Of a stretch of DNA of 64,000 bases, positions 26,792 through 46,341 are shown one piece after another. The DNA comes from Patescibacteria group bacterium (lineage in GTDB: Bacteria > Patescibacteriota > Patescibacteriia > Magasanikbacterales > GWA2-37-8), in assembly GCA_041651015.1 (NCBI GenBank), contig JBAZKA010000005.1, forward strand, positions 1,326 to 65,325, written 5' to 3'. The translations under genes and the position numbers were made by a program. Each line of letters begins with the position of its first letter. Position 1 is the first letter of the stretch. The notes under the pieces are model-generated. The model saw only the letters and a list, made by a program, of their open reading frames with translations, was not told where the DNA came from and made no database searches.

Positions 26792-29011
<2,220 letters not shown>

Positions 29012-29231
29012 CTAAATATACAGAATTTATGTGATTATTTTATCATTATATATGACTATTGGCAAGGCGCAAGTTGTGGGTGGAATGCGATTGTTGATTA
29101 GTCATGGCAATAACGAACCAGCCGTTAGACATGCGGTAAATCAATATTTTATATTTCAAATTTACGGCCGATATGTTATTATAAATTAATATAGAATTAT
29201 TATGGCACAATACAGCTAAAGTCAAATAATT

Positions 29232-29711
29232 ATGATTACTTTTCGTCCTCATATTAGAGCAGATATACCTTTTCGCGTTAAGTGGCTCAATAACAAGAAT
29301 GCCTCTGTTTACGCCGTGGATGATCCCGGCAAGACTACAGACATTCCGCAACAAACAAAATGGTTTGATGATTATGAACAAAACCCCGCCAAGAGTTTTT
29401 TGACTATTTGTGATGATATAACCCCAATCGGTTTTATGGGTTTGACAGAGATTGATAATATCAAAAAAACAGCAAGCATTTTTATTTTAATTGGGGAGGA
29501 CGAATACCGTGGTAAAGGGATTGGTAAAACCGCTTTGCAGCATTTAATTGATGTTGCTGTTAAGCAAGAGCATCTTGTTTTTTTGAATTTAGGAGTAGAC
29601 AAGCGCAATATTGTGGCAATTAAGTTGTACCAGTCATTAAATTTTTTTACAGTGGCTGAGAATGATAAAGAAATTTTTATGCGTTTGGACAATGGTGGCC
29701 ATCTTGACTAA
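29232..29711 (+). CDS. GNAT-family N-acetyltransferase
   Basis: Acetyl-CoA binding motif EYRGKGIGKTALQHLID, 159 aa. Confidence 0.75.
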   Translation: MITFRPHIRADIPFRVKWLNNKNASVYAVDDPGKTTDIPQQTKWFDDYEQNPAKSFLTICDDITPIGFMGLTEIDNIKKTASIFILIGEDEYRGKGIGKTALQHLIDVAVKQEHLVFLNLGVDKRNIVAIKLYQSLNFFTVAENDKEIFMRLDNGGHLD

Positions 29712-29780
29712 AATCGTTTTATTGGTGTATTATTTTATCGATAAACCTCAATCTCGGGGTTTACAAAGGAGGGTTGGGTC

Positions 29781-29900
29781 ATGAAGAAGACTCCGCAGAA
29801 AGTCTCGACCAATGTTGTTCATGTATGCTTCAAGGGCAACCGAAAGGTGGTGCGCGCCACGCGCGAATCGATCGGTGCCATGAAGTACAAGGGCGAATAG
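29781..29900 (+). CDS. Candidate RiPP precursor-like peptide (39 aa)
   Basis: AAAGGAGGG-7 nt-ATG. MKKTPQKVSTNVVHVCFKGNRKVVRATRESIGAMKYKGE. Followed by hairpin agtggcggagaggactgaaaaccctccgccactttt and then the radical-SAM gene. Confidence 0.45.
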   Translation: MKKTPQKVSTNVVHVCFKGNRKVVRATRESIGAMKYKGE

Positions 29901-29981
29901 TCGCCCGGACAGCTCAACCAGTGGCGGAGAGGACTGAAAACCCTCCGCCACTTTTCTTAACAAGAGGAAAAAGGAGAGAGA

Positions 29982-31340
29982 ATGCACGTTTATGAACGGG
30001 AGGGAAGATTTCTTGTTGTTATTGGCCACATTCCTCAGTGGTTTGTGGTAGACGGGTTTGGTTTGGCGATCGCGCGTGGAATTGAACACGGCTATTCGTT
30101 ACAACAAATTTTGTTAAGGCACGGCAAGGACGTACATTGTGAAGCGGAGGCGGTGTACGCAGATCTCGCGCCGTTAATCAATCAACAAGTAAATCGGACG
30201 ACTGCCATTGTAGAAAACGTTCTTACCTCCAAGACGACGGTCGCCATGATCAGCGTCACCCGGGGCTGCAATTTAAAGAGCATTTGTCCTCACTGCTATG
30301 TGGACGCTAATGGTTCGCGTGGTATAGAACTTACTGTCGTTGAACATCGGAACATTGCCAAGCAACTCCGTGAGTGCATGGCCGCGGACGATCATCATGA
30401 ATATAAGGTGAACCTGACCGGAGGCGAGCCTTTTATTCGCAAGGATATTCTGGACATCATCCAGGCCTACAGCGACGCGGGGTTTTTAGTCAGCATGAGC
30501 ACTAACGCCTTGCTGATTCACCGCAAGTATATGGAATCCTTGAAACGAATGAATGTCACACTGTCCGTTTCGCTTGATGGTTCCAATGCATGCACGCACG
30601 ACCGCATTCGTGGCGCCGGTTCGTGGGAACGTGTGGTCAAGAAAATTCGCATACTGACCAAAGTGGGCGTGCGTGTGGGGATTAACTATCTGGTCAACAA
30701 CGAGAATTTTCTTGACATGGAAAAAACCATCGCACTCGCGCATCAACTGGGTTGCACTGGGTTCAACCCCATCAATCTCGTTCAACTTGGGCGGGCGTGC
30801 ACCGGCACCTTGCACAGGGTTCCCGAAGTGGATATTTTTGGCCACTTAGCCAAACACCTGATCAACAATCCCAGTCACCAACACCTCTTTGCCGCCTCGT
30901 CATTGTTTTCTTCGCTAGGCGCCGCCTTGCTGGCCGGTATCACCTGCGAGAGTTGCGGTGTCGGAAACAGGCCGTGCGTCTATATTGATGAAACTGGCGC
31001 TGTCTATCCTTGCCCCAACACCCAGCGCGCAGAGTTTCTCCTGGGTAATTTACGCACACAGTCGCTACATGATTGCGTTTATCTAGATCATCCGGTTTTG
31101 AGCAATTTACGTAATCTTGAGATCGCTTCTCTTAACCCTATTTGTGGAGATTGTGATGTGCGCTATTTCTGTGGCGGTGACTGTCGCGGCGAGACATATA
31201 ATGTCACTGGAGACCTTCGAGCTCCTTATGTGGCTTGCCAAGATCGTCACGATTCTCTCATAGAACTAATGTGGGTAGTCGCCGATAATCCGCAGCTGTT
31301 CGAAACAAGAGCCGACGAGTATGCTTCGAACCTCCACTGA
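29982..31340 (+). CDS. Radical SAM/SPASM-domain peptide-modifying enzyme with N-terminal PqqD-like RRE
   Basis: N-terminal about 90-aa RRE-like region. Cys triad CNLKSICPHC (Cx5Cx2C), GGEP SAM motif, SVSLDG. C-terminal SPASM Cys clusters (CESCGVGNRPC...YPC, CGDCDVRYFCGGDC). Confidence 0.85.
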   Translation: MHVYEREGRFLVVIGHIPQWFVVDGFGLAIARGIEHGYSLQQILLRHGKDVHCEAEAVYADLAPLINQQVNRTTAIVENVLTSKTTVAMISVTRGCNLKSICPHCYVDANGSRGIELTVVEHRNIAKQLRECMAADDHHEYKVNLTGGEPFIRKDILDIIQAYSDAGFLVSMSTNALLIHRKYMESLKRMNVTLSVSLDGSNACTHDRIRGAGSWERVVKKIRILTKVGVRVGINYLVNNENFLDMEKTIALAHQLGCTGFNPINLVQLGRACTGTLHRVPEVDIFGHLAKHLINNPSHQHLFAASSLFSSLGAALLAGITCESCGVGNRPCVYIDETGAVYPCPNTQRAEFLLGNLRTQSLHDCVYLDHPVLSNLRNLEIASLNPICGDCDVRYFCGGDCRGETYNVTGDLRAPYVACQDRHDSLIELMWVVADNPQLFETRADEYASNLH

Positions 31341-31363
31341 TCTTTGCTTGTAATTTCAACTTT

Positions 31364-31400
31364 GGGCAGTCTGCATATATGCGCGGGCTGCCTTTTTTAT
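31364..31400 (+). terminator. Terminator after the radical-SAM gene
   Basis: gggcagtctgcatatatgcgcgggctgcc followed by tttttt. Confidence 0.6.
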
Positions 31401-31636
31401 ATTATTTGTTTGGAATATACGTATTTAAAACAACATTCGCCGCATGAGTATTGTTTTAATTTAAGTTCGTCGTTTAGAGTTGATTTTGATAATAACGCAT
31501 ATCAAATTTACGAATACGCATTTGAGAGTATTAATGACAAATTGTTCATACGGCATGTGGAATACAACTTTGAAGGCGCAAGTTGCGGGTTGTCCGCATT
31601 TTGTTTATATGATGATTTTGATGTATAATATATATA

Positions 31637-32620
31637 ATGATATTTTTCTATCATTATATTATGGTCAATTTTTACTCACAGCAAAATCGTAATGGCGACG
31701 GAAATATCATCCCTGAATCGCCGGCCAAGAAAACAACCAAGTCAAAAGTCAATATTGGAAAATATGTTGACCCGACCGGCGAGTTTGGTTCCGAACAATA
31801 CAAACGATCATTTTGGTTTGTAAAAAATAAATTATTACTCTATCGTTTGCTGGTCTCTTTTTTGGTTGCTTTCAGCGTCATCACTGTCGGTTATTCTTTG
31901 TGGAAGGGTTTTGAACTTTTAATTTTTGAACTGACGGCTAATGATACAATGGAACAGCAATTGGCTCACTCCACCAATTATGGAGCGTTAAACACGGCTT
32001 ATACGCCATCGCCAATAGATATTTTATCCACGCAAATTTATACCGGTGGAACAGATAAAATTGATTTGGTTTCGGAAGCGGTTAACGTCAATGAGCGTTA
32101 CGTGGCGCGTTTTACCTATTATTATGATTTTAATGGATTAAAAACCGCACCGCAATCAGCGATTTTGCTTCCGACCGAAAGCCGCCCGTTGGCGACACTG
32201 GGATTGGATACAAGTGAATTTTCCGGTTCGGCCAATTTGGTTTTGACCAACGTGAGTTTCACGCGCGTGGACAATCATATTATTCCGGATTTATCCGCTT
32301 GGATGGCGGAACGTTTAAATTTTAGCGTGGACAATTTTGTTTATACGCCGGCCGATTCCGATCTGAACGCCAATTCCATAAAATTTACTTTGGTAAATAA
32401 TTCTCCTTATGGTTATCGCGCGCCGAATTTTTATCTTGGTCTATTCCAAAACGGGGGACTGGTTGGATTGATGAAATTTGATACCACTGATTTGCAATCG
32501 CAAGAATCAAGAGAAATTGATTTGCGTAATTTTGTTCAGAATCTGTCTGTATCCGAAGTGAAGCTATATCCGCTCATTGACCTTTTTGATGATAGCGTGT
32601 ATCTTGCTCCAAAGAGGTAG
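31637..32620 (+). CDS. Hypothetical membrane-anchored protein
   Basis: One TM (LLLYRLLVSFLVAFSVITVGY) followed by an about 240-aa extracytoplasmic domain. Start could be the internal ATG at 31661. Confidence 0.5.
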   Translation: MIFFYHYIMVNFYSQQNRNGDGNIIPESPAKKTTKSKVNIGKYVDPTGEFGSEQYKRSFWFVKNKLLLYRLLVSFLVAFSVITVGYSLWKGFELLIFELTANDTMEQQLAHSTNYGALNTAYTPSPIDILSTQIYTGGTDKIDLVSEAVNVNERYVARFTYYYDFNGLKTAPQSAILLPTESRPLATLGLDTSEFSGSANLVLTNVSFTRVDNHIIPDLSAWMAERLNFSVDNFVYTPADSDLNANSIKFTLVNNSPYGYRAPNFYLGLFQNGGLVGLMKFDTTDLQSQESREIDLRNFVQNLSVSEVKLYPLIDLFDDSVYLAPKR

Positions 32621-34851: not shown

Positions 34852-36624
34852 ATGCGCGTTTTCAAGAAAGAAAATATCTCCGAAATTGCCGCTGAATTTT
34901 TTGGCGGCAATGTTGTTATTTTCCCCACCGAGACATCCTACGGCCTGGGTTGTGATGCGACCAATCAAACGGCGGTGGATAAAATTTATCAGATAAAGAA
35001 TCGGCCGGCGAGCAAATCGCTTCTAATTGTTGCGCCGAATATTGCGGAAGCGAAGAAATATTTAGTTTGGAATAGAACCATAGATAAACTCGCGAATAAA
35101 TTTTGGTCCGGCTCCGCTCACGCTACGCCGGATAAAATTAAAAAAATAGCGCCTCTGACTATCGTGGGAAAATGCGCGAGCAAAGATTTGGCGCGCGGGG
35201 TGGTATCAAAAGAAAATACAGTGGCTGTCCGCGTCACCTATGACCTGTGGCTCAAAGAATTGGGCGAGCAAACCGGCCTGCCGATCATTGCCACCTCGGC
35301 CAATCTTTCGGGCGCCGGCGATATATATAATGTAGAGGAGGCGATTAATCAATTCAAAGATACACAGTTCGAGCCCGATGCCATCGTGGACGCGGGCGTT
35401 TTGCCTCATAATTTACCATCCACGATCGTGGATGCATCGGAGAATAAAATTAAAATTTTGCGTCAGGGCGCTTTGAAAATTTCCGATTCGTTCGGACAAG
35501 CATTTATTTCCATAATTTTGATTGGCACGGCAGTGATTCTCGGCGCGCTGGCCATTGTTTACGCCTGGCAAACGGCGTTAGTTGGTATGAATATTAATTT
35601 GCTTTTTACGTCAGCCTACGATGGAGAAAAATATCCGGCCGGAGAGAAACATTATCTCAAGACCGTTAAAGGACTTTATCTTACGGCTTATTCGGCCGGC
35701 AGTGAGAAAAAGATTGATGCCATAATAAATTTGATTGATAAAACCGAGCTCAATGCCGTAGTTATAGATATCAAGGATTATAGCGGTTTGGTTTTGTACG
35801 ACAGTCAGCTCGCGACAGTAAACGAGTTAAATACAGAAGATAACAGACTGGGCGATGTGCCCGCCTTGATTGAGAAATTGCATGAACACAAAATTTACGT
35901 CATCGCTCGCCAGACGATTTTTCAAGATCCGGTCTTGGCCGAAGCCAAATCCGATTGGGCGATAAAGAAAAAGTCCGGCGGTGTTTGGCGTGATAAAAAG
36001 GGTTTGGCTTGGGTGGATCCGACGCGTAAAGAAGTTTGGGAATATAATTTGGCCATTGCCAAAGAGGCGATTAAATTTGGTTTTGATGAAATAAATTTTG
36101 ACTATGTCCGCTTTCCGTCCGACGGCAATATGAGCGATGTGGTCTATACGGTCGGCGACAAAAAGAAATATGAAGTGATGAATGAATTTTATAGATATAT
36201 GAGCGCGCATTTGCGCGATGAACCGGCTTGGCTATCTTTGGATATGTTTGGCTTGGTGATGGAGACGGCGCCCGAGAATGATATGAATATTGGCCAGCGT
36301 TTGGCGGACGCGGTGGATTACGCGGATTTTATTTGTCCGATGATGTATCCCTCGCATTATCCGTCCGGACATTTGGGTTTGAAAAATCCGGCCGATTACC
36401 CGACTTTGGTTTTTGAAAACGGCCTGCAAAAAGGTTTGCCAAAATTTGTGGATAAACGCGCCATACTTCGCCCTTGGCTCCAGGCATTCAATCTGGGCGC
36501 GGTCTATGGTGCGGATAAAATTCGCGCGCAAATTGACGCCACGGAAAAATATACCGACGCCGGATGGTTGCTTTGGAATGCGAGCAATAATTATACGGAT
36601 AAAGGTTTGAAATATGAACGATAA
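34852..36624 (+). CDS. Fusion protein: TsaC/YrdC/Sua5-like threonylcarbamoyl-AMP synthase domain, a TM helix, and a C-terminal putative glycoside-hydrolase-like (GHL10/DUF4015-type) domain
   Basis: N-terminal VVIFPTETSYGLGCDATN...KNRPASKSLLIV (YrdC fold). TM AFISIILIGTAVILGALAIVYAW. C-terminal LNAVVIDIKDYSG...GFDEINFDYVRFPSDGN. Confidence 0.7.
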   Translation: MRVFKKENISEIAAEFFGGNVVIFPTETSYGLGCDATNQTAVDKIYQIKNRPASKSLLIVAPNIAEAKKYLVWNRTIDKLANKFWSGSAHATPDKIKKIAPLTIVGKCASKDLARGVVSKENTVAVRVTYDLWLKELGEQTGLPIIATSANLSGAGDIYNVEEAINQFKDTQFEPDAIVDAGVLPHNLPSTIVDASENKIKILRQGALKISDSFGQAFISIILIGTAVILGALAIVYAWQTALVGMNINLLFTSAYDGEKYPAGEKHYLKTVKGLYLTAYSAGSEKKIDAIINLIDKTELNAVVIDIKDYSGLVLYDSQLATVNELNTEDNRLGDVPALIEKLHEHKIYVIARQTIFQDPVLAEAKSDWAIKKKSGGVWRDKKGLAWVDPTRKEVWEYNLAIAKEAIKFGFDEINFDYVRFPSDGNMSDVVYTVGDKKKYEVMNEFYRYMSAHLRDEPAWLSLDMFGLVMETAPENDMNIGQRLADAVDYADFICPMMYPSHYPSGHLGLKNPADYPTLVFENGLQKGLPKFVDKRAILRPWLQAFNLGAVYGADKIRAQIDATEKYTDAGWLLWNASNNYTDKGLKYER

Positions 36625-37496: not shown

Positions 37497-38171
37497 ATGG
37501 ACGAACCGCAAAACCGTTTTAGCAAAGAGCAGAAAATCGGCTTGGTTTTGCTGTCTTCTTTTGTCGTACTGGCGGTGACGCTCGGGTTGATTGAAATGCG
37601 TAATACCTTGTATAGTCCGTTTGCTTTGAATAATTCCATTCCGGCTATGATTGGGAGTGATGTGGATACGACCGACGCGTTGCGTTATCGTGATACCGAT
37701 GCTGACGGCCTGAATGATTTTGACGAATTATATGTTTATTCCACCAGCCCGTATTTGGCTGATACTGATTCGGACGGCTTGACCGACAAGCAAGAAGTTG
37801 AAGGTGGTAAAAATCCCAATTGCGCCGAAGGCAAAGATTGCAATGCGTCAATCGCGGAAAACGGTTCGGCCATAATCGCCACCAGTTCCACTGATGTGGC
37901 CGATACCAACACACTGTTTTCAAATTATGATGTGACATCAACCTTGGAAGCCATGCTCACTTCGCCGGATCAGATGAGAACTCTTTTGCTTGAATCCGGT
38001 TTGGCGCAATCAGTGGTGGATAAAATTTCCGATGATGATCTGACCAAAATGGCGTTGGAGATAATGTCTTCATCTACCATCTTGGATAGTATGGAAACCA
38101 CTTCCACTACAGTATCTGATGTGACGACCACGGCGAAATTTATCAATCAACTAATGAATGCTTCGCAATAA
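37497..38171 (+). CDS. Membrane-anchored protein with thrombospondin-type-3-like Ca-binding repeats
   Basis: N-terminal TM. DTDADGLNDFDE / DTDSDGLTDKQE repeats. Its 3' end overlaps the start of the giant gene. Confidence 0.55.
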   Translation: MDEPQNRFSKEQKIGLVLLSSFVVLAVTLGLIEMRNTLYSPFALNNSIPAMIGSDVDTTDALRYRDTDADGLNDFDELYVYSTSPYLADTDSDGLTDKQEVEGGKNPNCAEGKDCNASIAENGSAIIATSSTDVADTNTLFSNYDVTSTLEAMLTSPDQMRTLLLESGLAQSVVDKISDDDLTKMALEIMSSSTILDSMETTSTTVSDVTTTAKFINQLMNASQ

Positions 38172-41100
38172 TCAGCGCTTTATGTTTTTTAACACAAAAA
38201 AATTTGGTTTGAGCGCGATACTTTCAATCTTTGTATTTGTGACCATTTTCGGTTCATTATTTTTTGCGCCGCGTCCGGCGCGAGCACAAATGGACGCAAA
38301 TATTACAAATGCATTCAGGGCATGGCAAGTCAAAGGTACGGTTCAAGAAGTCAAACAAACTCTCAAAGAGAAAGCCCAGTTCATGTTTATGACCGCGCTC
38401 ATGAACGGCTTAAATTATTTTGCCAATAAAATCGCTTATGATATGGGCGTTTGGCTGGCCTCGGGTGATTGGGGTCAAGGGCCGTTTTCCAGCGGAAAAA
38501 GTTTTGGCAGTTATATGGCTCAAGTAGCCGGCGATTCGCTCGGTGAAATGCTTGGCTCACTCAGCGAAGATTTGGGTTTGAATCTCTGCGACTTGCCGGA
38601 TTTGCGTTTGGATTTGGCTCTGCAACTCGGTTTTCATTTTGCGTATAATGAACCAAAGCCGAAATGTTCATGGCAACAACTCCGTGCGGCCTATAATCCG
38701 GAAAATGTTTACAGCAAATATGCTAGTCGCGAGGGCTTGGCCGATAGAATCGGTTTGGGTGTGAATGTCAAAGACACTGATATGGGTATTTGGTTTAAAT
38801 CCAAAGAAACAATTGACGCTTATACCGAAGAACAAGTGGCCGGCGCTTCGGGCGAGGATGCGCGCGGCGAGGGTATCAGCGCCATGACGGAAATTATTTC
38901 CGGCAAACAAGTTACTCCGGCCGCTGCCATGAAACAAGAAATGCTGGCACAAACTCCATCCAAACAGCAAGAAGGGCGCGCGGCTGATACTCGTTCCATG
39001 ACCAATGCCGCTTTGCAAAAAGGCGCGACCACGGTGGCGCTCAACGCAGTCAGTACTTTTGTAAATACTTTACTGGGCACGGTGGTAAATAATTTTGTTA
39101 CCAAAGGCATGTTGCCGGGCGGAAAAACAATTTGCAACCCGGGACTCAGTATTACCGGCGTGGGTTGGAACCAATGCGCTGATTCTGATTCCTCCGACAC
39201 GCTTGCCGCAAATTATTACACCTCTGGTTCGGAAACGGACAACCGCCGGGCGGCTCAAGAATTATTTTCAGAATTGCTCGCGCCGAAAATTACTACTTTG
39301 GAAAATTATGATTTGGCCACCAATATGGCCGAGTGTTCCGAGGATAATAAATCTCCGGACGCCTGCGTGATTGATCAGTCATTCATGCAAATTTTACAGC
39401 AGGCTGATTTGGGTGACGCACTCACCATCAAGCAAGCGATGGAACGCGGACTTTTGCACGGCGATTGGAAATTAATATCCCCGAACAATGCCGAGGAAAC
39501 CGATAAATGGACTTGCGCCGAAGAAGCTTATTGTTATCGCAACATTAAATTTTTACGCCAAGCCAGAATTTTGCCGGTCGGATTTGAAATGGCCGCTTAT
39601 ATCGCCAATGCGTCCACTCCGCCGAGTTTGTCCGATGTGGTGAATGGTTTTTATGATGAATCAAGCGCGTATTATCATTTGATCAATCCACAGTGGGTAA
39701 TCAAAATGCCCAAAATGCGTTGCGCTTCGTATGCTTACGGCGCCGTGGCCCAAGACGGTGTGCGCGTGCAGGAATGTGTGGATTTGCAACATTGCGTCGG
39801 CTACAACAAAGACGGCACCTGCCAATCATGGGGTTATTGTATGAAAGAAAAACCGGTTTGGAAATTTGATGCCGGTTATTGCGATTCAATTTATAGTACT
39901 TGCAAAGCTTTCACCGGCGCAGACGGCGACGCTTCATACCTTACTCGCACATTGGACACCACTGAATGCAATTCAGATAATGTTGGTTGCGCCAGATATT
40001 CGCGCGACAAATATTATGTAAATTCATCAACCGTGGATTGGTATTCGCAGTTGGCCGTATATAATGCCACTGATGAAACTTTTACCAACACCGGAATTCA
40101 TTTTAATAAATCAGTTTCCACTTGCTCGGCCGAAAATGACGGGTGCAGCGCGTTCAAATTAGCGAGTGACAACTCCACTTTATTGTATCTCAAAAAGGCG
40201 CCGGATTATCTGGGTTGCTATGATGCCGACCCGTCAACCGCCGCCAATTCTTTAGCCTTGCTCAACAAAAAAATCTCCAACGGCGTCCAGTGGCCGATGA
40301 CTTTATCCGGCTTGAATTTGATTCAACCGCAAGACAAAAAAGCCTGCGCCAATTACGCGCAAGTTTGTTTGCCCGAAGAAGTAAATTGTAATTATTACAC
40401 GGCTTCATACACCGGCGAGAAAATTCCGGCCAAGTTTACTCCGGCAGTCGTGAGCGACGGCCTGGTGACTTGGAATGATCAATGCGACGCAGTCTGCAAC
40501 GGTTATGCCGCCTACCAAGAAATGCCGAGTAATTATTCCAGCGGGCAAAATTTATCATATATAATACCTTCGTCTGGAAATTCTTGCATTGCTTCGCAAT
40601 CCGGCTGTACCGCTTTTACCAATTTGAATGCCAACTCGGGCGGGATGGAACAAAAAGAATATTTTTCTTATCTGCGCCTCTGCGCTTTGCCTGATCAGAC
40701 CAAGCAAAAAAATTATACTGTTTACGAAAGTTCGGAATCCGGCGGTTATTCCATCAAGACTTACACCCTGGTAAAAAATGACAGCAACAACGGACCCAAA
40801 CAAATTTTCCGCGATGCCGACGAGTATGCCGAGTTAGCCCCGTTATGTTCTCAAACGGCTTATGAAGCCGGCACGGCTGATCCGGATTGTCATCAATTTA
40901 TCGGCGATGATGCCTCCAAATATTACGCGTTTTTATCCAAGACAATTATCGCGACCGACCAATGCACGCCATATCGTCTAAGTTCCCCGGAGCTAATAGC
41001 GTTAACCTCAACCGATTTGCGTTGCGCTTATGATTACGATTATTACGGCGTTGATCGCCGTGCCGGTTCTTCCACCGTGGAATTCAAGAGCAATGCCTGT

Positions 41101-44100
41101 TATTACATGGGCACGACCGTCGGTACCAATGGCGCGGGCGATACGCGCACCTGCAATTCTAATGTTGAATCCTGTCGCGCTTACAAAGGCAATGCCGGCA
41201 ACAACGTCAGATTATTATTAAATGAAGATTTTGAAAATGCCGATTTGACGAATTGGGGTGTGTCGGCCAGTTCCGCGTCCACTGTCACTATTGCCACTTC
41301 CACCGAGTCCACGCAAATTGATGGGCATTCTTTACGCGTGAATGTGAAGACGAATTCTAGTGCAGCCACGGCTTACGCGCAATTAAACGGCCTTCCCGTG
41401 ACCAAAGGTAAAGCTTACACCATATCATTTTGGGCCAAAGGCAGTGCGGCTCTGAAAAGTGTTAGTTTGGCGAGCGCGGATTTTGAAGGTTCGTTTACCG
41501 ACAGCGAAATTAATTCGTCCGATGTTTGGAAATATTATTCCTTCGGTCCGCTAAATTACAACGGCAGCGCGACTACTTCGATTTTATATTTACCTTTGAG
41601 TGCGACCGGCGGCGCGACCCAACAATTATTTATAGACAACATCCGCTTGACCGAGGTGGCTGATTATATATATTTGGTAAAAAATTCTTTGAGCGTCAAT
41701 GCGCTGTGCGACAGTGATACCTCGGATAATTTGCCGGGCGAGGCACTGGGTTGCACGGCTTATTCTGATCCGCTCAAAAATATGTTTTATCTCACCGGCT
41801 TTAATTATCTTTGCCGTGAAGCCGCAGTTGGCTGTACGGCCGTGCTGGACACCTACAACACGCCGGATGATCCCAATGCGCAAGCTTATAATGTTTGGAT
41901 TGCCGGCGCCTCAGGCGGTACCGCATCTGCTACTGTGGGCGGGGAAACATTTACTTGCCAAGTACCGACCGGCGAGACCGGATGTTATACCGATATAATG
42001 GGTTATACGGCGGCACAATTGGTGGCGGCCGGTAATGTTCACTTGACCAGTTCCACAATTTATATTCCGCCGGACACCACCACCTCCACCCCGATTTATT
42101 TGGTAGCCAATCAAAGCGCGACATGCAAAGCGGAAAATTTAGGTTGCGAAGTTTTGGGCAAATCAACGGTGAGTGCCAGCGGATTATCCTATAAGGTGGA
42201 TGGCATTCTGGTAGTCCATTACGAAACATTTGAAGAGACGGCCGTATTAAATAATCCCGCGCTTTATAGCGATACATTGTGTAAAAACGAAGAAGCCGGT
42301 TGCAGCGCGTGGACCTCGGGCGACAGCTCATATTATTTCAAAAAACCAAACGCCACCTGCACATACAAAACAGATAAATTTATTTCCATTGAGCCTCCGG
42401 CCGCCGGCGTGGAAATTAAATCAGTAAATCTAAAAGCCAATTCCATTGGCTGGGTGATGCAGGACACGGGCATTTGCGTGCGAAACGAACTTTCTTCTTA
42501 TGGAATTGTTGGTAGTTCCATCTTTGGTATTGGCGGTTTTATACTTAATTCAGGGTCCCATTACATGGGCCGATACTGCGCTACTGATGCCGATTGTGTT
42601 ATCGGCACCTCTACCGGTACCTGCAAATATGTCAATCAAGTGCCGTGTTATCCGGCTTCAAGAAAACCGAGCGGGGAATATCAATTATGGTCATCGGGTA
42701 ATCCTGTCAAATACTATAATTACGTCGGCACATGTCCACAAGAGCAATCCGGTTGCACCGAGTATGTTGATCATAGTTCATCTGATAATAACGTCTGCGC
42801 CATGACCGGCGAAGTCTGCACTGATGATAGCGATTGTGAGACAGAGGGTGATACTTGCGTGGCAAATGAGGATAGCGCGTATTATTTAATTGATAATGAA
42901 AAACTTCAAGCGCAAGAAGCGGCCTGTAATGGCCAGGTCAGCCAAGCCGAAGGTTGCGCCCTGTTGGACAATACCAATAATCCCAATAAATATTGGAACA
43001 CAACTTCATCATATGCGTTATCAACAAGCAATGATGAAAATTTGGTGACCCCGGTTGATAAAGGCAATGCCAATGATGCTAACACAATTTTAAAAGTCAA
43101 ACACGATCGCGAATGCGCCGAGTGGGCGTATTGTGATTTTAAACAAACATATGTTGATTCGGAAACCAATGAAACCGCTTCGCGCTGTTATCATTTGGGC
43201 GTATGCCAGCAAGCAAGCTCGGCGGTTGGAGTTAGCGGCCGATGCGCGGAAGGTGGCGTAGTGACTGGTAGTTGGCTTGGTAAAGACAAAGTGCTTGATA
43301 AAAATTACTATCAATCCCTTTATTCATCGTGGGATTCAATTGATTTGTCCGGATATTCCATACCTTTTACGTATCAAATACCTGATTTAAGAGTGCGTAA
43401 TGTTGATGATACTAATCGTTTGGTTTATGTGACCACGACCGCATTATGCACTGACGAGACTGATAACGGCAGTGCATGCGGCTCGGGTGGTGCTTGTTAT
43501 AACGGAGAATGCTTATTTAATTATATAGGTCCGGGAAATTCCGTCACTTCGTCACGAAGTATATCTTGTCGCAGCTATCCTGAAGACTCCAGTCCGTTTT
43601 CCACCAGCGTATTGAGTGACAATACGGTTTGGGGCGATGGCGGATCGTCTGGCGGACATTTAATGTCAGCAATATACAAAACCGGTTTTGAAAACACGAA
43701 TTTGTGTTATGATGATTCGGGCGAACTCACCAACAATAAATGTGATTGTAGCTATGATAAATTTCAAACATCGGGTGGGGATATCTTTACTCAGGTCGGA
43801 CGCTCCACCGCTTCGGGCTATGTTTGCTCGGGCGGATCATATAATGGCAAAGATTGCGACGGTTCGGATGATATAGATACCTGTGGCACTGGTGGGACGT
43901 GTTCAAAAGTAAATTCCGTATCAGTCATGACCGGTTGGCAAGGATATTGCATGGAAAAAGATTTACGTCAGACTATAAATGGTACAAGCAATCATCGTTG
44001 TCTTACATGGTGGCCGCTTGAGCTTGCTCCGGGAACTTCAGATATTTGGGCGACTGATCCGAGCGCCGGTTATGAAGTGGGTGAGACCGACGATCGGTAT

Positions 44101-46341
44101 ATGTGTTTGATTAATGCGCCGACCAACAGAAAGCGCTCCACTGCTTATCCTACTTTTAATATGGGAGGTGCCTCAATGCAGGCGGACTGGGGAAATTCCA
44201 CGGGTAGTCTTCAAGGTCCGAATGGTGAGGCGATTCTTTATTCCGGCTCAGCGACTGTTGTTTATAATTCTTTGGAAAATAGCATCGTCACCGGATGTTG
44301 GGACACGAGTGCTAATGCGTTTGATGCTATTTGGGGGTTGTCTATGTCAGATGGAGACGATTCGCAAGGTAAATATTGTCCAATAAATAAAAATACATTG
44401 AAAGAAGCCGGGTCAAATCTCGCTCGGATCAGTTTGCCGGTCGGGCAGACATATTTGCAGAGGAATGATATTGAGAGAATAGATGTTTATCTTGATAAAC
44501 GGTACTCTGGCGACGGTGGTGATGGTGCTGGTTGTAGTGACGGTTGGGTGAGTTTTTACAATGATTTACTTGACGAGAACGAGGATCAATCTTTTATCGT
44601 TAAAGAATGGTTTAGACCGGGTTGTACAAATTCAAGCTGGAGAAAAAAGAGTTTTGGTAGTACCCCTTATTCATTATTAACCGACTGGTATTCGTGGCAA
44701 TGGGAAGGGGGCAATCTCGACGGAGATGGTAATTGGGTTAAAGATAGCAGTATTGTGTACAATCTACAAAACGATACCTATGCGTCCATAACACAAAACA
44801 ATGATTCAGGCAATGGCACTGGTATTCGGATTATATTTGATTCCAAAAATAATTTCAGAGGTATCTGGGTTGATGGCGAAGATAACGCGTCTGGTAGTAC
44901 CGATATGGGATTTTTCTTTGTCATTACTCTACGTGATGGTCGTTGCGCGGAACAATTGCAAATTTCCGATGAAGATGATGAATATTTTGGTTTTAAACCA
45001 TTTACCGGAAGACTAGCACTTGGAGACTTATCTGTCGGTGGAGACTGGGCGGAGTTTGGATTGTCTGCCACTCGCACCAAAGAGATGGATAACCCAAATT
45101 ATGGTTTAAATAGTGATAGCTCACCGCGCACTCTTATCAATCCATTTGTTACGTTATTGGGCAAGTATGGTGCTAACGCCCACAGTCCGCAGGGTATCTC
45201 CGATCCAGATACGGCCATGACAATTCACGCTTCAGATTATGACGCCGGTGTGCCGTTGAGCGTAATGAGGGTGCAAGATGCACCAGCAAGCGAGTACGCG
45301 AGATTTTATGTTGAAAAAGTTAGTGACTGTGCGGCGAACCCGGGTGCACCATATTGTCAGATGCTTAAGCGAATGTTTGCTCGAGTTTATTCGGATAGAT
45401 TGCTGGTGCGCGTGTCGGACGGTGTTTACGCGTTCAAAGATGATCCGACGACATCCGATGGTACAATAGTGGTAAAAAACGGGACATCGGTAGATGACTT
45501 TGACTCTACTGCCGACGCTGCCAATCCGGCAACCGCAAAGACATTAAAATTAATTCTTTATCCGCCACGTGTGGCGGCTCCAACATCTGCCGGTTACGAG
45601 ATAGATGCAGTTGCAGTTAACGGACAAACATCCGGCAATGTGTACTTGGCATCTGGTGCGACTGCGGCGATTCAATTTTACGCGTGGGCTTCACCCAACC
45701 AAATGCCACTGCGCCGTGTCGCGGTCAGAAAAGGCGATGGCACGGATCCAGTAGCGGTTGAGAGCGAAAGTTTAAGTAATAAAAAACCGTCATGCAATAC
45801 AAAATTTTGTGATTGCAATCGCAATACGGGTACAGGTGGAGATGAATTTTGTATTCAGGACCTTAGTGAATTGATGCCTTGTAGTAATGATAGTGATTGC
45901 GACGGATTAACGAACAACACCGTATGCTCAGGCTCTTCCGCCTCCGGTTATACGACCTTTGGCTCGACTTCGGACACCGGCTGCAAAGCCGAACCCTATG
46001 ATTTCATTGTGGATTATTCTTGCCCAATGGGTGGCAGTGAAGGAGCAAAAGTTTATCCATCATCCGCCTCCACCTACGGCATAAATTGGAACACAGACAT
46101 TGTCGCCAATTTCGGTGATGTTCCTTACGTTTGCGCCTTCCAACCCAAAGTTCAGGTGTTGGATAATTGGGGTTGGTGCACTAGTCGAGCGCCAGGTACA
46201 AACGGTGGATGTAATTATTCTTCAAATGAATATGTGAATGGATACGGGTGTTATGCGGAGGATGTATATGATTATTGCGCTTTAAGTAAATCACAACCGT
46301 GGGTACTATATGGTGGTTACGTGGTCGTAGTGCCAATGTAA
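38158..46341 (+). CDS. Giant (2727 aa) Cys-rich extracellular/surface protein with polymorphic C-terminal module
   Basis: Uninterrupted 8.2-kb ORF. N-terminal signal/anchor (FGLSAILSIFVFVTIFGSLFFAP). Hundreds of Cys spaced as in disulfide-rich repeats. The C-terminal 125 aa are homologous to the downstream orphan ORF 47885-48259. Confidence 0.85.
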   Translation: MLRNNQRFMFFNTKKFGLSAILSIFVFVTIFGSLFFAPRPARAQMDANITNAFRAWQVKGTVQEVKQTLKEKAQFMFMTALMNGLNYFANKIAYDMGVWLASGDWGQGPFSSGKSFGSYMAQVAGDSLGEMLGSLSEDLGLNLCDLPDLRLDLALQLGFHFAYNEPKPKCSWQQLRAAYNPENVYSKYASREGLADRIGLGVNVKDTDMGIWFKSKETIDAYTEEQVAGASGEDARGEGISAMTEIISGKQVTPAAAMKQEMLAQTPSKQQEGRAADTRSMTNAALQKGATTVALNAVSTFVNTLLGTVVNNFVTKGMLPGGKTICNPGLSITGVGWNQCADSDSSDTLAANYYTSGSETDNRRAAQELFSELLAPKITTLENYDLATNMAECSEDNKSPDACVIDQSFMQILQQADLGDALTIKQAMERGLLHGDWKLISPNNAEETDKWTCAEEAYCYRNIKFLRQARILPVGFEMAAYIANASTPPSLSDVVNGFYDESSAYYHLINPQWVIKMPKMRCASYAYGAVAQDGVRVQECVDLQHCVGYNKDGTCQSWGYCMKEKPVWKFDAGYCDSIYSTCKAFTGADGDASYLTRTLDTTECNSDNVGCARYSRDKYYVNSSTVDWYSQLAVYNATDETFTNTGIHFNKSVSTCSAENDGCSAFKLASDNSTLLYLKKAPDYLGCYDADPSTAANSLALLNKKISNGVQWPMTLSGLNLIQPQDKKACANYAQVCLPEEVNCNYYTASYTGEKIPAKFTPAVVSDGLVTWNDQCDAVCNGYAAYQEMPSNYSSGQNLSYIIPSSGNSCIASQSGCTAFTNLNANSGGMEQKEYFSYLRLCALPDQTKQKNYTVYESSESGGYSIKTYTLVKNDSNNGPKQIFRDADEYAELAPLCSQTAYEAGTADPDCHQFIGDDASKYYAFLSKTIIATDQCTPYRLSSPELIALTSTDLRCAYDYDYYGVDRRAGSSTVEFKSNACYYMGTTVGTNGAGDTRTCNSNVESCRAYKGNAGNNVRLLLNEDFENADLTNWGVSASSASTVTIATSTESTQIDGHSLRVNVKTNSSAATAYAQLNGLPVTKGKAYTISFWAKGSAALKSVSLASADFEGSFTDSEINSSDVWKYYSFGPLNYNGSATTSILYLPLSATGGATQQLFIDNIRLTEVADYIYLVKNSLSVNALCDSDTSDNLPGEALGCTAYSDPLKNMFYLTGFNYLCREAAVGCTAVLDTYNTPDDPNAQAYNVWIAGASGGTASATVGGETFTCQVPTGETGCYTDIMGYTAAQLVAAGNVHLTSSTIYIPPDTTTSTPIYLVANQSATCKAENLGCEVLGKSTVSASGLSYKVDGILVVHYETFEETAVLNNPALYSDTLCKNEEAGCSAWTSGDSSYYFKKPNATCTYKTDKFISIEPPAAGVEIKSVNLKANSIGWVMQDTGICVRNELSSYGIVGSSIFGIGGFILNSGSHYMGRYCATDADCVIGTSTGTCKYVNQVPCYPASRKPSGEYQLWSSGNPVKYYNYVGTCPQEQSGCTEYVDHSSSDNNVCAMTGEVCTDDSDCETEGDTCVANEDSAYYLIDNEKLQAQEAACNGQVSQAEGCALLDNTNNPNKYWNTTSSYALSTSNDENLVTPVDKGNANDANTILKVKHDRECAEWAYCDFKQTYVDSETNETASRCYHLGVCQQASSAVGVSGRCAEGGVVTGSWLGKDKVLDKNYYQSLYSSWDSIDLSGYSIPFTYQIPDLRVRNVDDTNRLVYVTTTALCTDETDNGSACGSGGACYNGECLFNYIGPGNSVTSSRSISCRSYPEDSSPFSTSVLSDNTVWGDGGSSGGHLMSAIYKTGFENTNLCYDDSGELTNNKCDCSYDKFQTSGGDIFTQVGRSTASGYVCSGGSYNGKDCDGSDDIDTCGTGGTCSKVNSVSVMTGWQGYCMEKDLRQTINGTSNHRCLTWWPLELAPGTSDIWATDPSAGYEVGETDDRYMCLINAPTNRKRSTAYPTFNMGGASMQADWGNSTGSLQGPNGEAILYSGSATVVYNSLENSIVTGCWDTSANAFDAIWGLSMSDGDDSQGKYCPINKNTLKEAGSNLARISLPVGQTYLQRNDIERIDVYLDKRYSGDGGDGAGCSDGWVSFYNDLLDENEDQSFIVKEWFRPGCTNSSWRKKSFGSTPYSLLTDWYSWQWEGGNLDGDGNWVKDSSIVYNLQNDTYASITQNNDSGNGTGIRIIFDSKNNFRGIWVDGEDNASGSTDMGFFFVITLRDGRCAEQLQISDEDDEYFGFKPFTGRLALGDLSVGGDWAEFGLSATRTKEMDNPNYGLNSDSSPRTLINPFVTLLGKYGANAHSPQGISDPDTAMTIHASDYDAGVPLSVMRVQDAPASEYARFYVEKVSDCAANPGAPYCQMLKRMFARVYSDRLLVRVSDGVYAFKDDPTTSDGTIVVKNGTSVDDFDSTADAANPATAKTLKLILYPPRVAAPTSAGYEIDAVAVNGQTSGNVYLASGATAAIQFYAWASPNQMPLRRVAVRKGDGTDPVAVESESLSNKKPSCNTKFCDCNRNTGTGGDEFCIQDLSELMPCSNDSDCDGLTNNTVCSGSSASGYTTFGSTSDTGCKAEPYDFIVDYSCPMGGSEGAKVYPSSASTYGINWNTDIVANFGDVPYVCAFQPKVQVLDNWGWCTSRAPGTNGGCNYSSNEYVNGYGCYAEDVYDYCALSKSQPWVLYGGYVVVVPM

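Follow-up and report, generated by a model that had tools for sequence, protein, structure and literature searches.

A precursor-like peptide and a radical SAM/SPASM enzyme as a probable RiPP-type cassette in a Patescibacteria genome

Radical S-adenosylmethionine (SAM) enzymes that carry a SPASM domain and mature peptides have proved to be a source of new bond-forming chemistry. The general view of Patescibacteria is that they have little specialised metabolism. The locus described here raises the question of what a Patescibacteria group bacterium does with a 39-residue peptide that is encoded directly ahead of an enzyme of this kind. The analysed DNA, referred to below as the window, is a 64-kb stretch of contig JBAZKA010000005.1 (assembly GCA_041651015.1), and positions are window coordinates unless a locus of a relative is named. 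Three genes lie on its forward strand, namely open reading frames (ORFs) of 159 residues (29232-29711), 39 residues (29781-29900), and 452 residues (29982-31340). Together they probably constitute a compact system for a peptide that is synthesized on ribosomes and modified after translation (a RiPP), in which a GNAT acetyltransferase and a precursor peptide accompany a maturase composed of a RiPP recognition element (RRE), a radical SAM domain, and a SPASM domain.

The assignment of peptide and enzyme as a substrate-enzyme pair of the RRE/radical SAM/SPASM kind is well supported by comparison of predicted genes, because the two are strictly adjacent in unrelated neighbourhoods and are fused in-frame in relatives. 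An ORF of the peptide family lies directly 5' of the enzyme gene in every locus that contains the enzyme start, and these comprise 18 distinct loci and peptides; the similar pairs that the preliminary description of this DNA, made from the window's letters alone, had suggested seeking elsewhere were thus found. In relatives of about 31-33% identity (P0076-P0079 and ORFs in L041 and L044), the peptide is joined in-frame to the N-terminus of the enzyme. At the level of predicted proteins, such fusions show that the two partners act on one another, and in this sister clade they imply a modification in cis. No radical SAM maturase joined to its own substrate peptide came to light in the literature searches. 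The features of the cassette, followed by the fused forms of the relatives, are given below.

29232-29711, forward strand: gene of a GNAT N-acetyltransferase of 159 residues (Pfam), a probable accessory gene of the cassette.
29704-29733, forward strand: predicted promoter-like site TTGACT-18-TATTAT, a sequence match only (10 of 12 positions in a consensus scan).
29766-29772, forward strand: Shine-Dalgarno sequence AAGGAGG, read from the sequence, 8 nt 5' of the peptide ATG.
29781-29900, forward strand: gene of a precursor-like peptide of 39 residues, MKKTPQKVSTNVVHVCFKGNRKVVRATRESIGAMKYKGE (ORF and homologous loci).
29920-29959, forward strand: GC-rich stem-loop (29920-29952) with a T-run (29953-29959), terminator- or attenuator-like, between the peptide and enzyme genes.
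29970-29976, forward strand: Shine-Dalgarno sequence AAAGGAG of the enzyme gene, read from the sequence, 5 nt 5' of the enzyme ATG.
29982-31340, forward strand: gene of a predicted radical SAM/SPASM peptide maturase of 452 residues (Pfam, NCBIfam, and structural relatives).
29982-30251, forward strand: enzyme residues 1-90, predicted RRE-type (PqqD-like) winged-helix peptide-binding domain (AlphaFold2 model and profile alignment).
30267-30296, forward strand: radical SAM cluster motif C96-NLKSI-C102-PH-C105 (Cx5Cx2C).
30945-31238, forward strand: SPASM region from C322 to C419 (cysteine conservation).
31364-31403, forward strand: intrinsic-terminator-like hairpin (31364-31393; 11 pairs, 7 of them GC, in the scan, followed by TTTTTTATATT) and a T-run closing the cassette.
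L097:3253-4788, L044:2596-4122, and L041:797-2329: ORFs of the fused form in relatives (proteins P0076-P0079).

The peptide gene is real and is under purifying selection in its own frame, since pairwise differences over the 21-codon core fall mostly at third positions (711, 523, and 1929 at codon positions 1, 2, and 3) and the other two frames contain stops in 16 and 12 of the 18 sequences. It is conserved at all full-length homologous loci, which together with the third-position bias bears out its earlier reading as a gene. The overlapping TTG-started frame of 73 residues, noted before as an alternative, does exist, and is rejected as the coding frame because stops break up the alternative frames at most homologous loci. 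The peptide consists of a basic N-terminal part, the segment VVHVCFKGN, and the conserved core RESIGAMKYKGE. A core of the form GN-x7-RE-x2-G-x-M-K-Y-K-x-E/Q is near-invariant in the family, and the peptide ORFs at these loci end in ...RE(A/S)xG(A/T)(M/F/V)(K/R)Y(K/R)(A/G/S)(E/Q). Across 31 aligned peptides, the invariant residues are G19, N20, R28, E29, M34, and Y36, with A26, A30, G32, A33, K35, and K37 close to invariance. The family is genuine but rare: a profile search of 5.8 billion proteins, with a 43-residue member as the first sequence, returned 30 peptide clusters, each unnamed or labelled 'hypothetical', and a search of 1.84 billion representatives gave only 19 peptide matches. The peptide matches nothing in Pfam, NCBIfam, or PADLOC. 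In the window peptide, cysteine is residue 16, in about 12 others of the 31 it is residue 17, and the remainder have Phe, His, Ser, or Leu, so that none of the aligned columns is a conserved cysteine, and tryptophan is absent from every family peptide. Because cysteine is not conserved and tryptophan is lacking, a conserved thioether or Lys-Trp chemistry on these peptides is unlikely, which supports the earlier suspicion that the product carries neither a classical sactionine nor a streptide-type crosslink.

The enzyme was called a radical SAM/SPASM protein in the preliminary description, and Pfam finds both domains (Radical_SAM at residues 90-252, 9e-23; SPASM at residues 332-392, 3e-5, 24.8 bits against a cutoff of 21.5). 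The top NCBIfam match is the StsB sactipeptide maturase model (NF045574; residues 5-433, 150 bits against a cutoff of 625), and every curated NCBIfam model falls far below its cutoff, including TIGR04053, WgkB (NF050035, 124/650), AhbD, MftC (TIGR03962, 112/265), ScmF, NirJ, DynA, PapB (NF047865, 83.5/340), the anaerobic sulfatase-maturating enzyme (anSME; TIGR03942, 80.5/349), PqqE (TIGR02109, 66/381), and the SCIFF maturase (TIGR03974, 60.8/425). A profile of 45 family members aligned with solved structures places CteB first (5WGG, 1e-28, residues 4-433), followed by SkfB, anSME, ChlB, PqqE, and SuiB, and the alignments to anSME start only at query residue 94. An AlphaFold2 model built on the family alignment has a predicted local distance difference test (pLDDT) score of 91 and a predicted template modelling score of 0.89, and its leading Foldseek matches in the PDB are CteB (TM-score ~0.67-0.71), SkfB, SuiB, anSME, and TigE. 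At the N-terminus, the model has three strands (residues 2-6, 9-14, and 19-23), then three helices (25-35, 40-46, and 49-66; pLDDT ~88-97 throughout), and a β3α3 RRE topology (β1-β2-β3-α1-α2-α3) for residues 2-66 is supported by the model. The guess of an RRE in the first ~90 residues gains from this topology and from the alignment to CteB beginning at residue 4, while the PqqD family of Pfam itself is silent on the window enzyme and matches 5 of 50 wider relatives. Both points on which the preliminary description had staked its reading came out in its favour, as the enzyme groups with RRE-bearing peptide maturases, not with anSME or cofactor enzymes, and the small ORF is conserved.

Invariant cysteines of the enzyme are C96, C102, and C105 together with seven in the SPASM region (C325, C344, C388, C391, C397, C401, and C419), where residues 388-401 form a Cx2Cx5Cx3C motif; C258, C322, and C332 are near-invariant. 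The SPASM-region cysteines suffice for the full ligation of two auxiliary [4Fe-4S] clusters. The preliminary description also drew attention to the Cx5Cx2C spacing of the SAM cluster. The motif is present (C96-x5-C102-x2-C105), but it is a clade-specific two-residue insertion and not a family trait. It is confined to the ten closest relatives (P0001-P0010), an independent two-residue insertion in the same loop occurs in P0016 (locus L005:4001-5362, CNMKEKCPHC), and the remaining 34 of the 45 aligned relatives have the canonical Cx3Cx2C. The alignment thus points to a loop lengthened to Cx5 at least twice within the family. Variant spacings, Cx5Cx2C among them, are already known elsewhere in the superfamily, for example in RadicalSAM.org Megacluster-4-10 (PMC9477430), and for this reason the spacing amounts to a local oddity of this loop, in a SPASM family that is otherwise canonical, and is not the family's hallmark.

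About 50 homologs of the enzyme share 50-67% identity with it, and their hosts, where named, are almost all metagenome-assembled genomes of Patescibacteria, the candidate phyla radiation (Azambacteria, Andersenbacteria, Komeilibacteria, Saccharibacteria, Berkelbacteria, and Peribacteraceae). The exceptions are one contig of a Microcoleaceae cyanobacterium and one bin labelled Gammaproteobacteria, and the Microcoleaceae member suggests horizontal transfer beyond Patescibacteria. That member (L003/L011, contig JBBITB010000005.1) lies between XisH/XisI, NB-ARC, and BrnT-type genes, and its precursor has 59 residues with a long acidic N-terminal part and no GNAT gene alongside. Plasmid and phage collections yielded only relatives below 30% identity and no sign of a mobile-element origin. 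In PADLOC the enzyme matches only generic viperin-type radical SAM cores, with no link to any defence system.

More distant clades indicate which parts of the peptide may serve recognition and which modification. A fused protein begins, for example, with MSIIHPGNLQSILSPRCAMDAMKYSRVKN..., followed by a linker of about 45 residues and then the RRE; another fused N-terminus reads MSIIHPGNLQSILSPRCAMDAMKYS.... The GN-x7-R-x-A-x2-AMKY spacing of the fused forms is identical to that of the free peptides, with an invariant Cys at the position of E29 and Asp at that of G32. In the AlphaFold2 model of fused P0078, the first 10 peptide residues have a pLDDT of 82 and include a strand at residues 3-5 ('IIH'), and residues 11-40 drop to 52-60. 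The protein P0074 keeps 'IHVLHPGN' before a different downstream core. From these two observations, the modelled confidence pattern and the retained segment, we infer that h-H-V-h-x-x-G-N may be a recognition sequence and the C-terminal motif the core, as the model suggests. The unfused clade of L094 has the core as ...ESYSAMRYHGE, and L096 (L096:1861-4968) encodes a 61-residue peptide with the core ...CEAFGALKYKGE / GNSQVIETVCEAFGALKYKGE and a C-terminal extension of 34 residues, behind which two radical SAM genes stand in tandem. The tyrosine of the core is invariant in all clades. The operons of the fused clade (L097:150-5689 and L044:1421-5029), in which start and stop codons of neighbouring genes overlap, further encode an AsnRS/asparagine-synthetase-A-like protein, a LysRS/EpmA-like protein, a SAM methyltransferase, and an S66 carboxypeptidase of the LdcA/MccF family. 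These annotations hint at aminoacyl-ligation chemistry on, or starting from, the peptide.

Between the peptide and enzyme genes of the window, a 12-bp GC-rich stem (29920-29952) precedes TTTTCTT. For this region the folding energy is -28.6 kcal/mol (z = -3.2), a stability matched by 1 of 200 shuffled sequences. A comparable GC-rich stem-loop with T-rich sequence occurs at the same place in about 16 of the 18 distinct loci, with spacers of 59-105 nt and z-scores mostly of -2.3 to -6.4, although the sequences are unrelated. Since structure and position are kept without sequence conservation, the hairpin is supported as a putative functional terminator or attenuator. A terminator or attenuator between precursor and enzyme genes is familiar in RiPP operons, where it yields an excess of precursor transcript. 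The peptide ORF, its Shine-Dalgarno sequence, this hairpin with its T-run, and the 452-residue gene all lie where the preliminary description had put them, in what it called a GC-rich island bracketed by terminators. The GC enrichment of 29750-31400 is genuine and modest: at 50.3%, it is the highest 1650-bp window of the 64 kb (mean 44.7%, standard deviation 2.4). The bracketing holds on the right, by virtue of the hairpin 3' of the enzyme gene, but not on the left, where the scan gave no terminator 5' of the peptide gene and the promoter-like site lies instead. An Rfam E-value scan of 28900-32000 returned only a chance match to sroH (17 bits against a gathering score of 80) and no known riboswitch or leader.

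The functional unit is probably wider than the island. The GNAT gene just upstream of it (29232-29711; Acetyltransf_1 3e-15, Acetyltransf_3 3e-11 in Pfam), which is of low GC, has a homolog adjoining the peptide-enzyme pair in 13 of the 18 distinct loci. The homolog occurs in four arrangements (upstream or downstream, same or opposite strand), and the other flanking genes vary between homologous loci. Its nearest curated or solved relatives, all weak matches, are the amine N-acetyltransferases PseH, SpeG, AAC(6'), and RimI. In the distant unfused clade (L094:3831-6792), a same-strand row consists of a 50-residue peptide gene (...ESYSAMRYHGE), the radical SAM gene, an ArgE/DapE-type M20 deacylase gene, and a RimJ-like GNAT gene, just downstream of a DDE transposase gene. 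The L094 GNAT has no detectable sequence similarity to that of the window, which suggests that an acetyltransferase may have been recruited independently in that clade. On account of the recurrent adjacency and of this separate recruitment, the GNAT is probably part of the functional unit of the cassette.

A mechanism that would fit these features can be proposed. The peptide would be transcribed from its own promoter, and the hairpin would halt most transcripts, so that peptide mRNA would exceed enzyme mRNA. The N-terminal RRE of the enzyme would bind the h-H-V-h-x-x-G-N segment (VVHVCFKGN in the window) as an added β-strand, and this docking would bring the conserved core at the C-terminus (RE-x2-G-x-M-K-Y-K-x-E) into the active site. 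SAM would be cleaved at the Cx5Cx2C cluster, and the resulting 5'-deoxyadenosyl radical would take a hydrogen from a side chain of the core. The carbon radical would most likely attack the invariant Tyr36, with E29 or K35 as candidate partner, to give a C-C or C-O crosslink while the SPASM clusters accept the electron; the bond would not be a conserved thioether. E29 lies seven residues from Y36 (E29-x6-Y36) and would be on the same face if the segment were helical, and K35 adjoins Y36. The GNAT would most likely acetylate an amine, either on the peptide or on a product of its breakdown, as a tailoring step or for self-protection. As the specific step, a Tyr-centred crosslink is plausible, with the doubts slightly outweighing the case for it, and it is favoured because Tyr36 is the sole obvious radical-acceptor side chain that is invariant in all clades. 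A triceptide (Ω1-X2-X3 cyclophane) was set aside on the motif only, X3 being Gly in the window peptide (Y-K-G) and thus having no β-carbon. Several observations weigh against the reading as a whole. The GNAT gene differs greatly in GC from the peptide-enzyme pair (36.9% vs 50%) and is missing at 5 of the 18 distinct loci; no protease, transporter, or immunity gene is present in the window, and the flanks are housekeeping genes. The recognition strand is assigned solely from the pLDDT and secondary structure of AlphaFold2 models. Neither partner of the tyrosine is universal, as K35 gives way to His or Tyr in two rare variants and the fused clade has Cys for E29.

The main rival to a RiPP-type system is that the peptide is the scaffold or precursor of a small molecule or cofactor, as for pyrroloquinoline quinone (PQQ), mycofactocin, or pearlin, in which case the radical SAM enzyme would join Tyr with Glu or Lys, cellular peptidases would release the product, and the GNAT would acetylate it or other processing would follow. 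This is unlikely on balance. In its favour, the core is near-invariant though the enzymes share only ~50% identity, which is more typical of PqqA and MftA than of antimicrobial RiPPs, and all unfused forms keep Glu and Tyr. The housekeeping setting with no transporter or immunity gene in the window agrees with it, as do the enzymes of amino-acid chemistry that the sister clades add (the ArgE/DapE-type deacylase with the RimJ-like GNAT, and the AsnRS/AsnA-like and LysRS/EpmA-like ligases, methyltransferase, and LdcA-like S66 carboxypeptidase), and the MftC and PqqE models score comparably to RiPP models. On the other hand, peptidase, oxidase, and ligase genes are absent from the window, the E-x6-Y spacing departs from the E-x3-Y of PqqA, the tyrosine is not C-terminal as it is in MftA, and the rarity and patchiness of the family (~30 clusters in 5.8 billion proteins; 19 matches in 1.84 billion representatives) would be odd for a cofactor.

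A thioether from the single cysteine C16 to an acceptor carbon, as formed by CteB, StsB, and the SCIFF maturases, would make the product a sactipeptide or ranthipeptide. StsB is indeed the top curated model and CteB the top solved relative, the window peptide does contain one cysteine, about 13 of the 31 aligned peptides have Cys just before R/K/Q/A/S-G-N, and the fused clade has its invariant Cys at the E29 position. This is nevertheless quite improbable, for the cysteine shifts between position 16 in the window and 17, most members have Phe, His, Ser, or Leu in its place, and the scores are far under the cutoffs (StsB 150/625, SCIFF maturase 61/425). Moreover, the StsB study (PMC10288494) shows that overall, full-length similarity fails to predict the chemistry of a radical SAM enzyme. 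That the enzyme acts on a non-peptide substrate or on another protein, like SPASM enzymes of the anSME or heme/cofactor type, and that the basic peptide is an independent small protein that happens to be linked, is very improbable. Models and structures of anSME, AhbD, and NirJ do match the catalytic core too, and so basic a peptide could bind nucleic acid. Yet the anSME chains leave the N-terminal RRE-fold domain uncovered (alignments from query residue 94), the enzyme reaches no curated cutoff, the two genes stay strictly adjacent at every locus despite differing neighbourhoods, and the sister clade has the in-frame fusions. A RiPP-type pairing of peptide and maturase remains the preferred reading.

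A RiPP-type radical SAM maturase with its precursor is a well-known kind of system, and within it the present family is uncharacterised, no curated family covering the peptide and none having its cutoff reached by the enzyme. Literature searches on the motif, on radical SAM RiPPs of the candidate phyla radiation, and on fused radical SAM precursors returned nothing specific, the supplements of the compendium of RRE-dependent radical SAM enzymes (PMC10288494) lying outside the search. It is conceivable, if improbable, that these genome-reduced Patescibacteria make a previously unseen product whose basis is the invariant Tyr, with a crosslink to Glu (E-x6-Y) or to the adjacent Lys. Such a product would follow the logic of PQQ and mycofactocin and not that of an antimicrobial RiPP, and the sister clade would be the first known self-modifying, cis-fused radical SAM maturases. 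With two to three genes, a near-invariant core, no conserved Cys or Trp, and a recurrent acetyltransferase, the cassette is a tractable target for a new crosslink or peptide-derived small molecule. The fusions in relatives offer a ready-made enzyme-substrate complex for structural work, and the natural change from Cx3 to Cx5 is a natural experiment on the tolerance of the cluster loop.

The housekeeping genes that flank the cassette in the window are those of NusG, GyrB, FtsW/RodA, PrfB, Sua5, and KsgA. Adjoining the GNAT gene, a 738-residue ORF (26792-29008, reverse strand) reads as a probable GyrB with an N-terminal extension (~60 residues) in which Lys, Pro, Ala, and Glu abound. Directly 3' of the cassette, a 327-residue ORF (31637-32620, forward strand) has no Pfam or NCBIfam match, and its adjacency is not kept at other loci. 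Farther along the forward strand, a 590-residue ORF (34852-36624) looks like an unusual fusion, its N-terminal part being a Sua5/YciO/YrdC domain (t6A synthesis) and its C-terminal part a DUF4015 putative glycosyl-hydrolase domain, and a very large ORF of 2727 residues occupies 38158-46341.

Among known systems, CteB, a thioether maturase of the thermocellin/SCIFF type (PDB 5WGG/5WHY), resembles the window enzyme in its three parts, an RRE at the N-terminus, a radical SAM barrel, and a SPASM domain bearing two auxiliary clusters. The two share only ~17% identity, and the substrate of CteB is rich in cysteine whereas no cysteine is conserved here; the window enzyme also has the Cx5Cx2C motif. 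StsB of Streptomyces sparsogenes (NF045574; PMC10288494) is the best-scoring curated family, and its alignment takes in the N-terminal domain, but the score is far below the cutoff and the precursor of the window family is unrelated and without a conserved cysteine. PqqE with PqqA and MftC with MftA are alike in joining a radical SAM/SPASM enzyme and RRE recognition to a short conserved peptide with an invariant Tyr (and Glu in PqqA) in a small, transporter-free gene set. They differ in that the window enzyme scores below their cutoffs, that E-x6-Y stands in place of the E-x3-Y of PqqA, and that the MftA precursor ends in Val-Tyr while the window peptide ends in K-Y-K-G-E; neither pqqB/C/D nor mftB/D/E/F is found among the window neighbours, with GNAT, GyrB, and FtsW nearby.

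The streptococcal RaS-RiPP enzymes SuiB/StrB, WgkB, and RrrB likewise have RRE, radical SAM, and SPASM parts and form a C-C crosslink from the aliphatic side chain of Lys or Arg to an aromatic ring, which is the kind of bond proposed here for Lys or Glu with Tyr. In contrast to their substrates, the window peptide has no Trp, the scores are far under the cutoffs, the host belongs to Patescibacteria, and the annotated window neighbours include no Rgg/SHP regulator gene. The anSME proteins have no RRE and act on sulfatases, while the window enzyme has a predicted N-terminal RRE and scores below the anSME cutoff, with no sulfatase gene among its annotated neighbours. Borosins (OphMA) and plant burpitides have a core peptide fused to the modifying enzyme, as in the sister clade (P0076-P0079, L041, and L044), but the modification there is the work of methyltransferases or copper cyclases and not of radical SAM proteins, and the window peptide is a separate gene. 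With generic RRE-dependent radical SAM/SPASM RiPP maturases, the cassette shares the three-cysteine radical SAM core, the seven-cysteine SPASM motif, the modelled RRE, and an adjacent conserved precursor gene.

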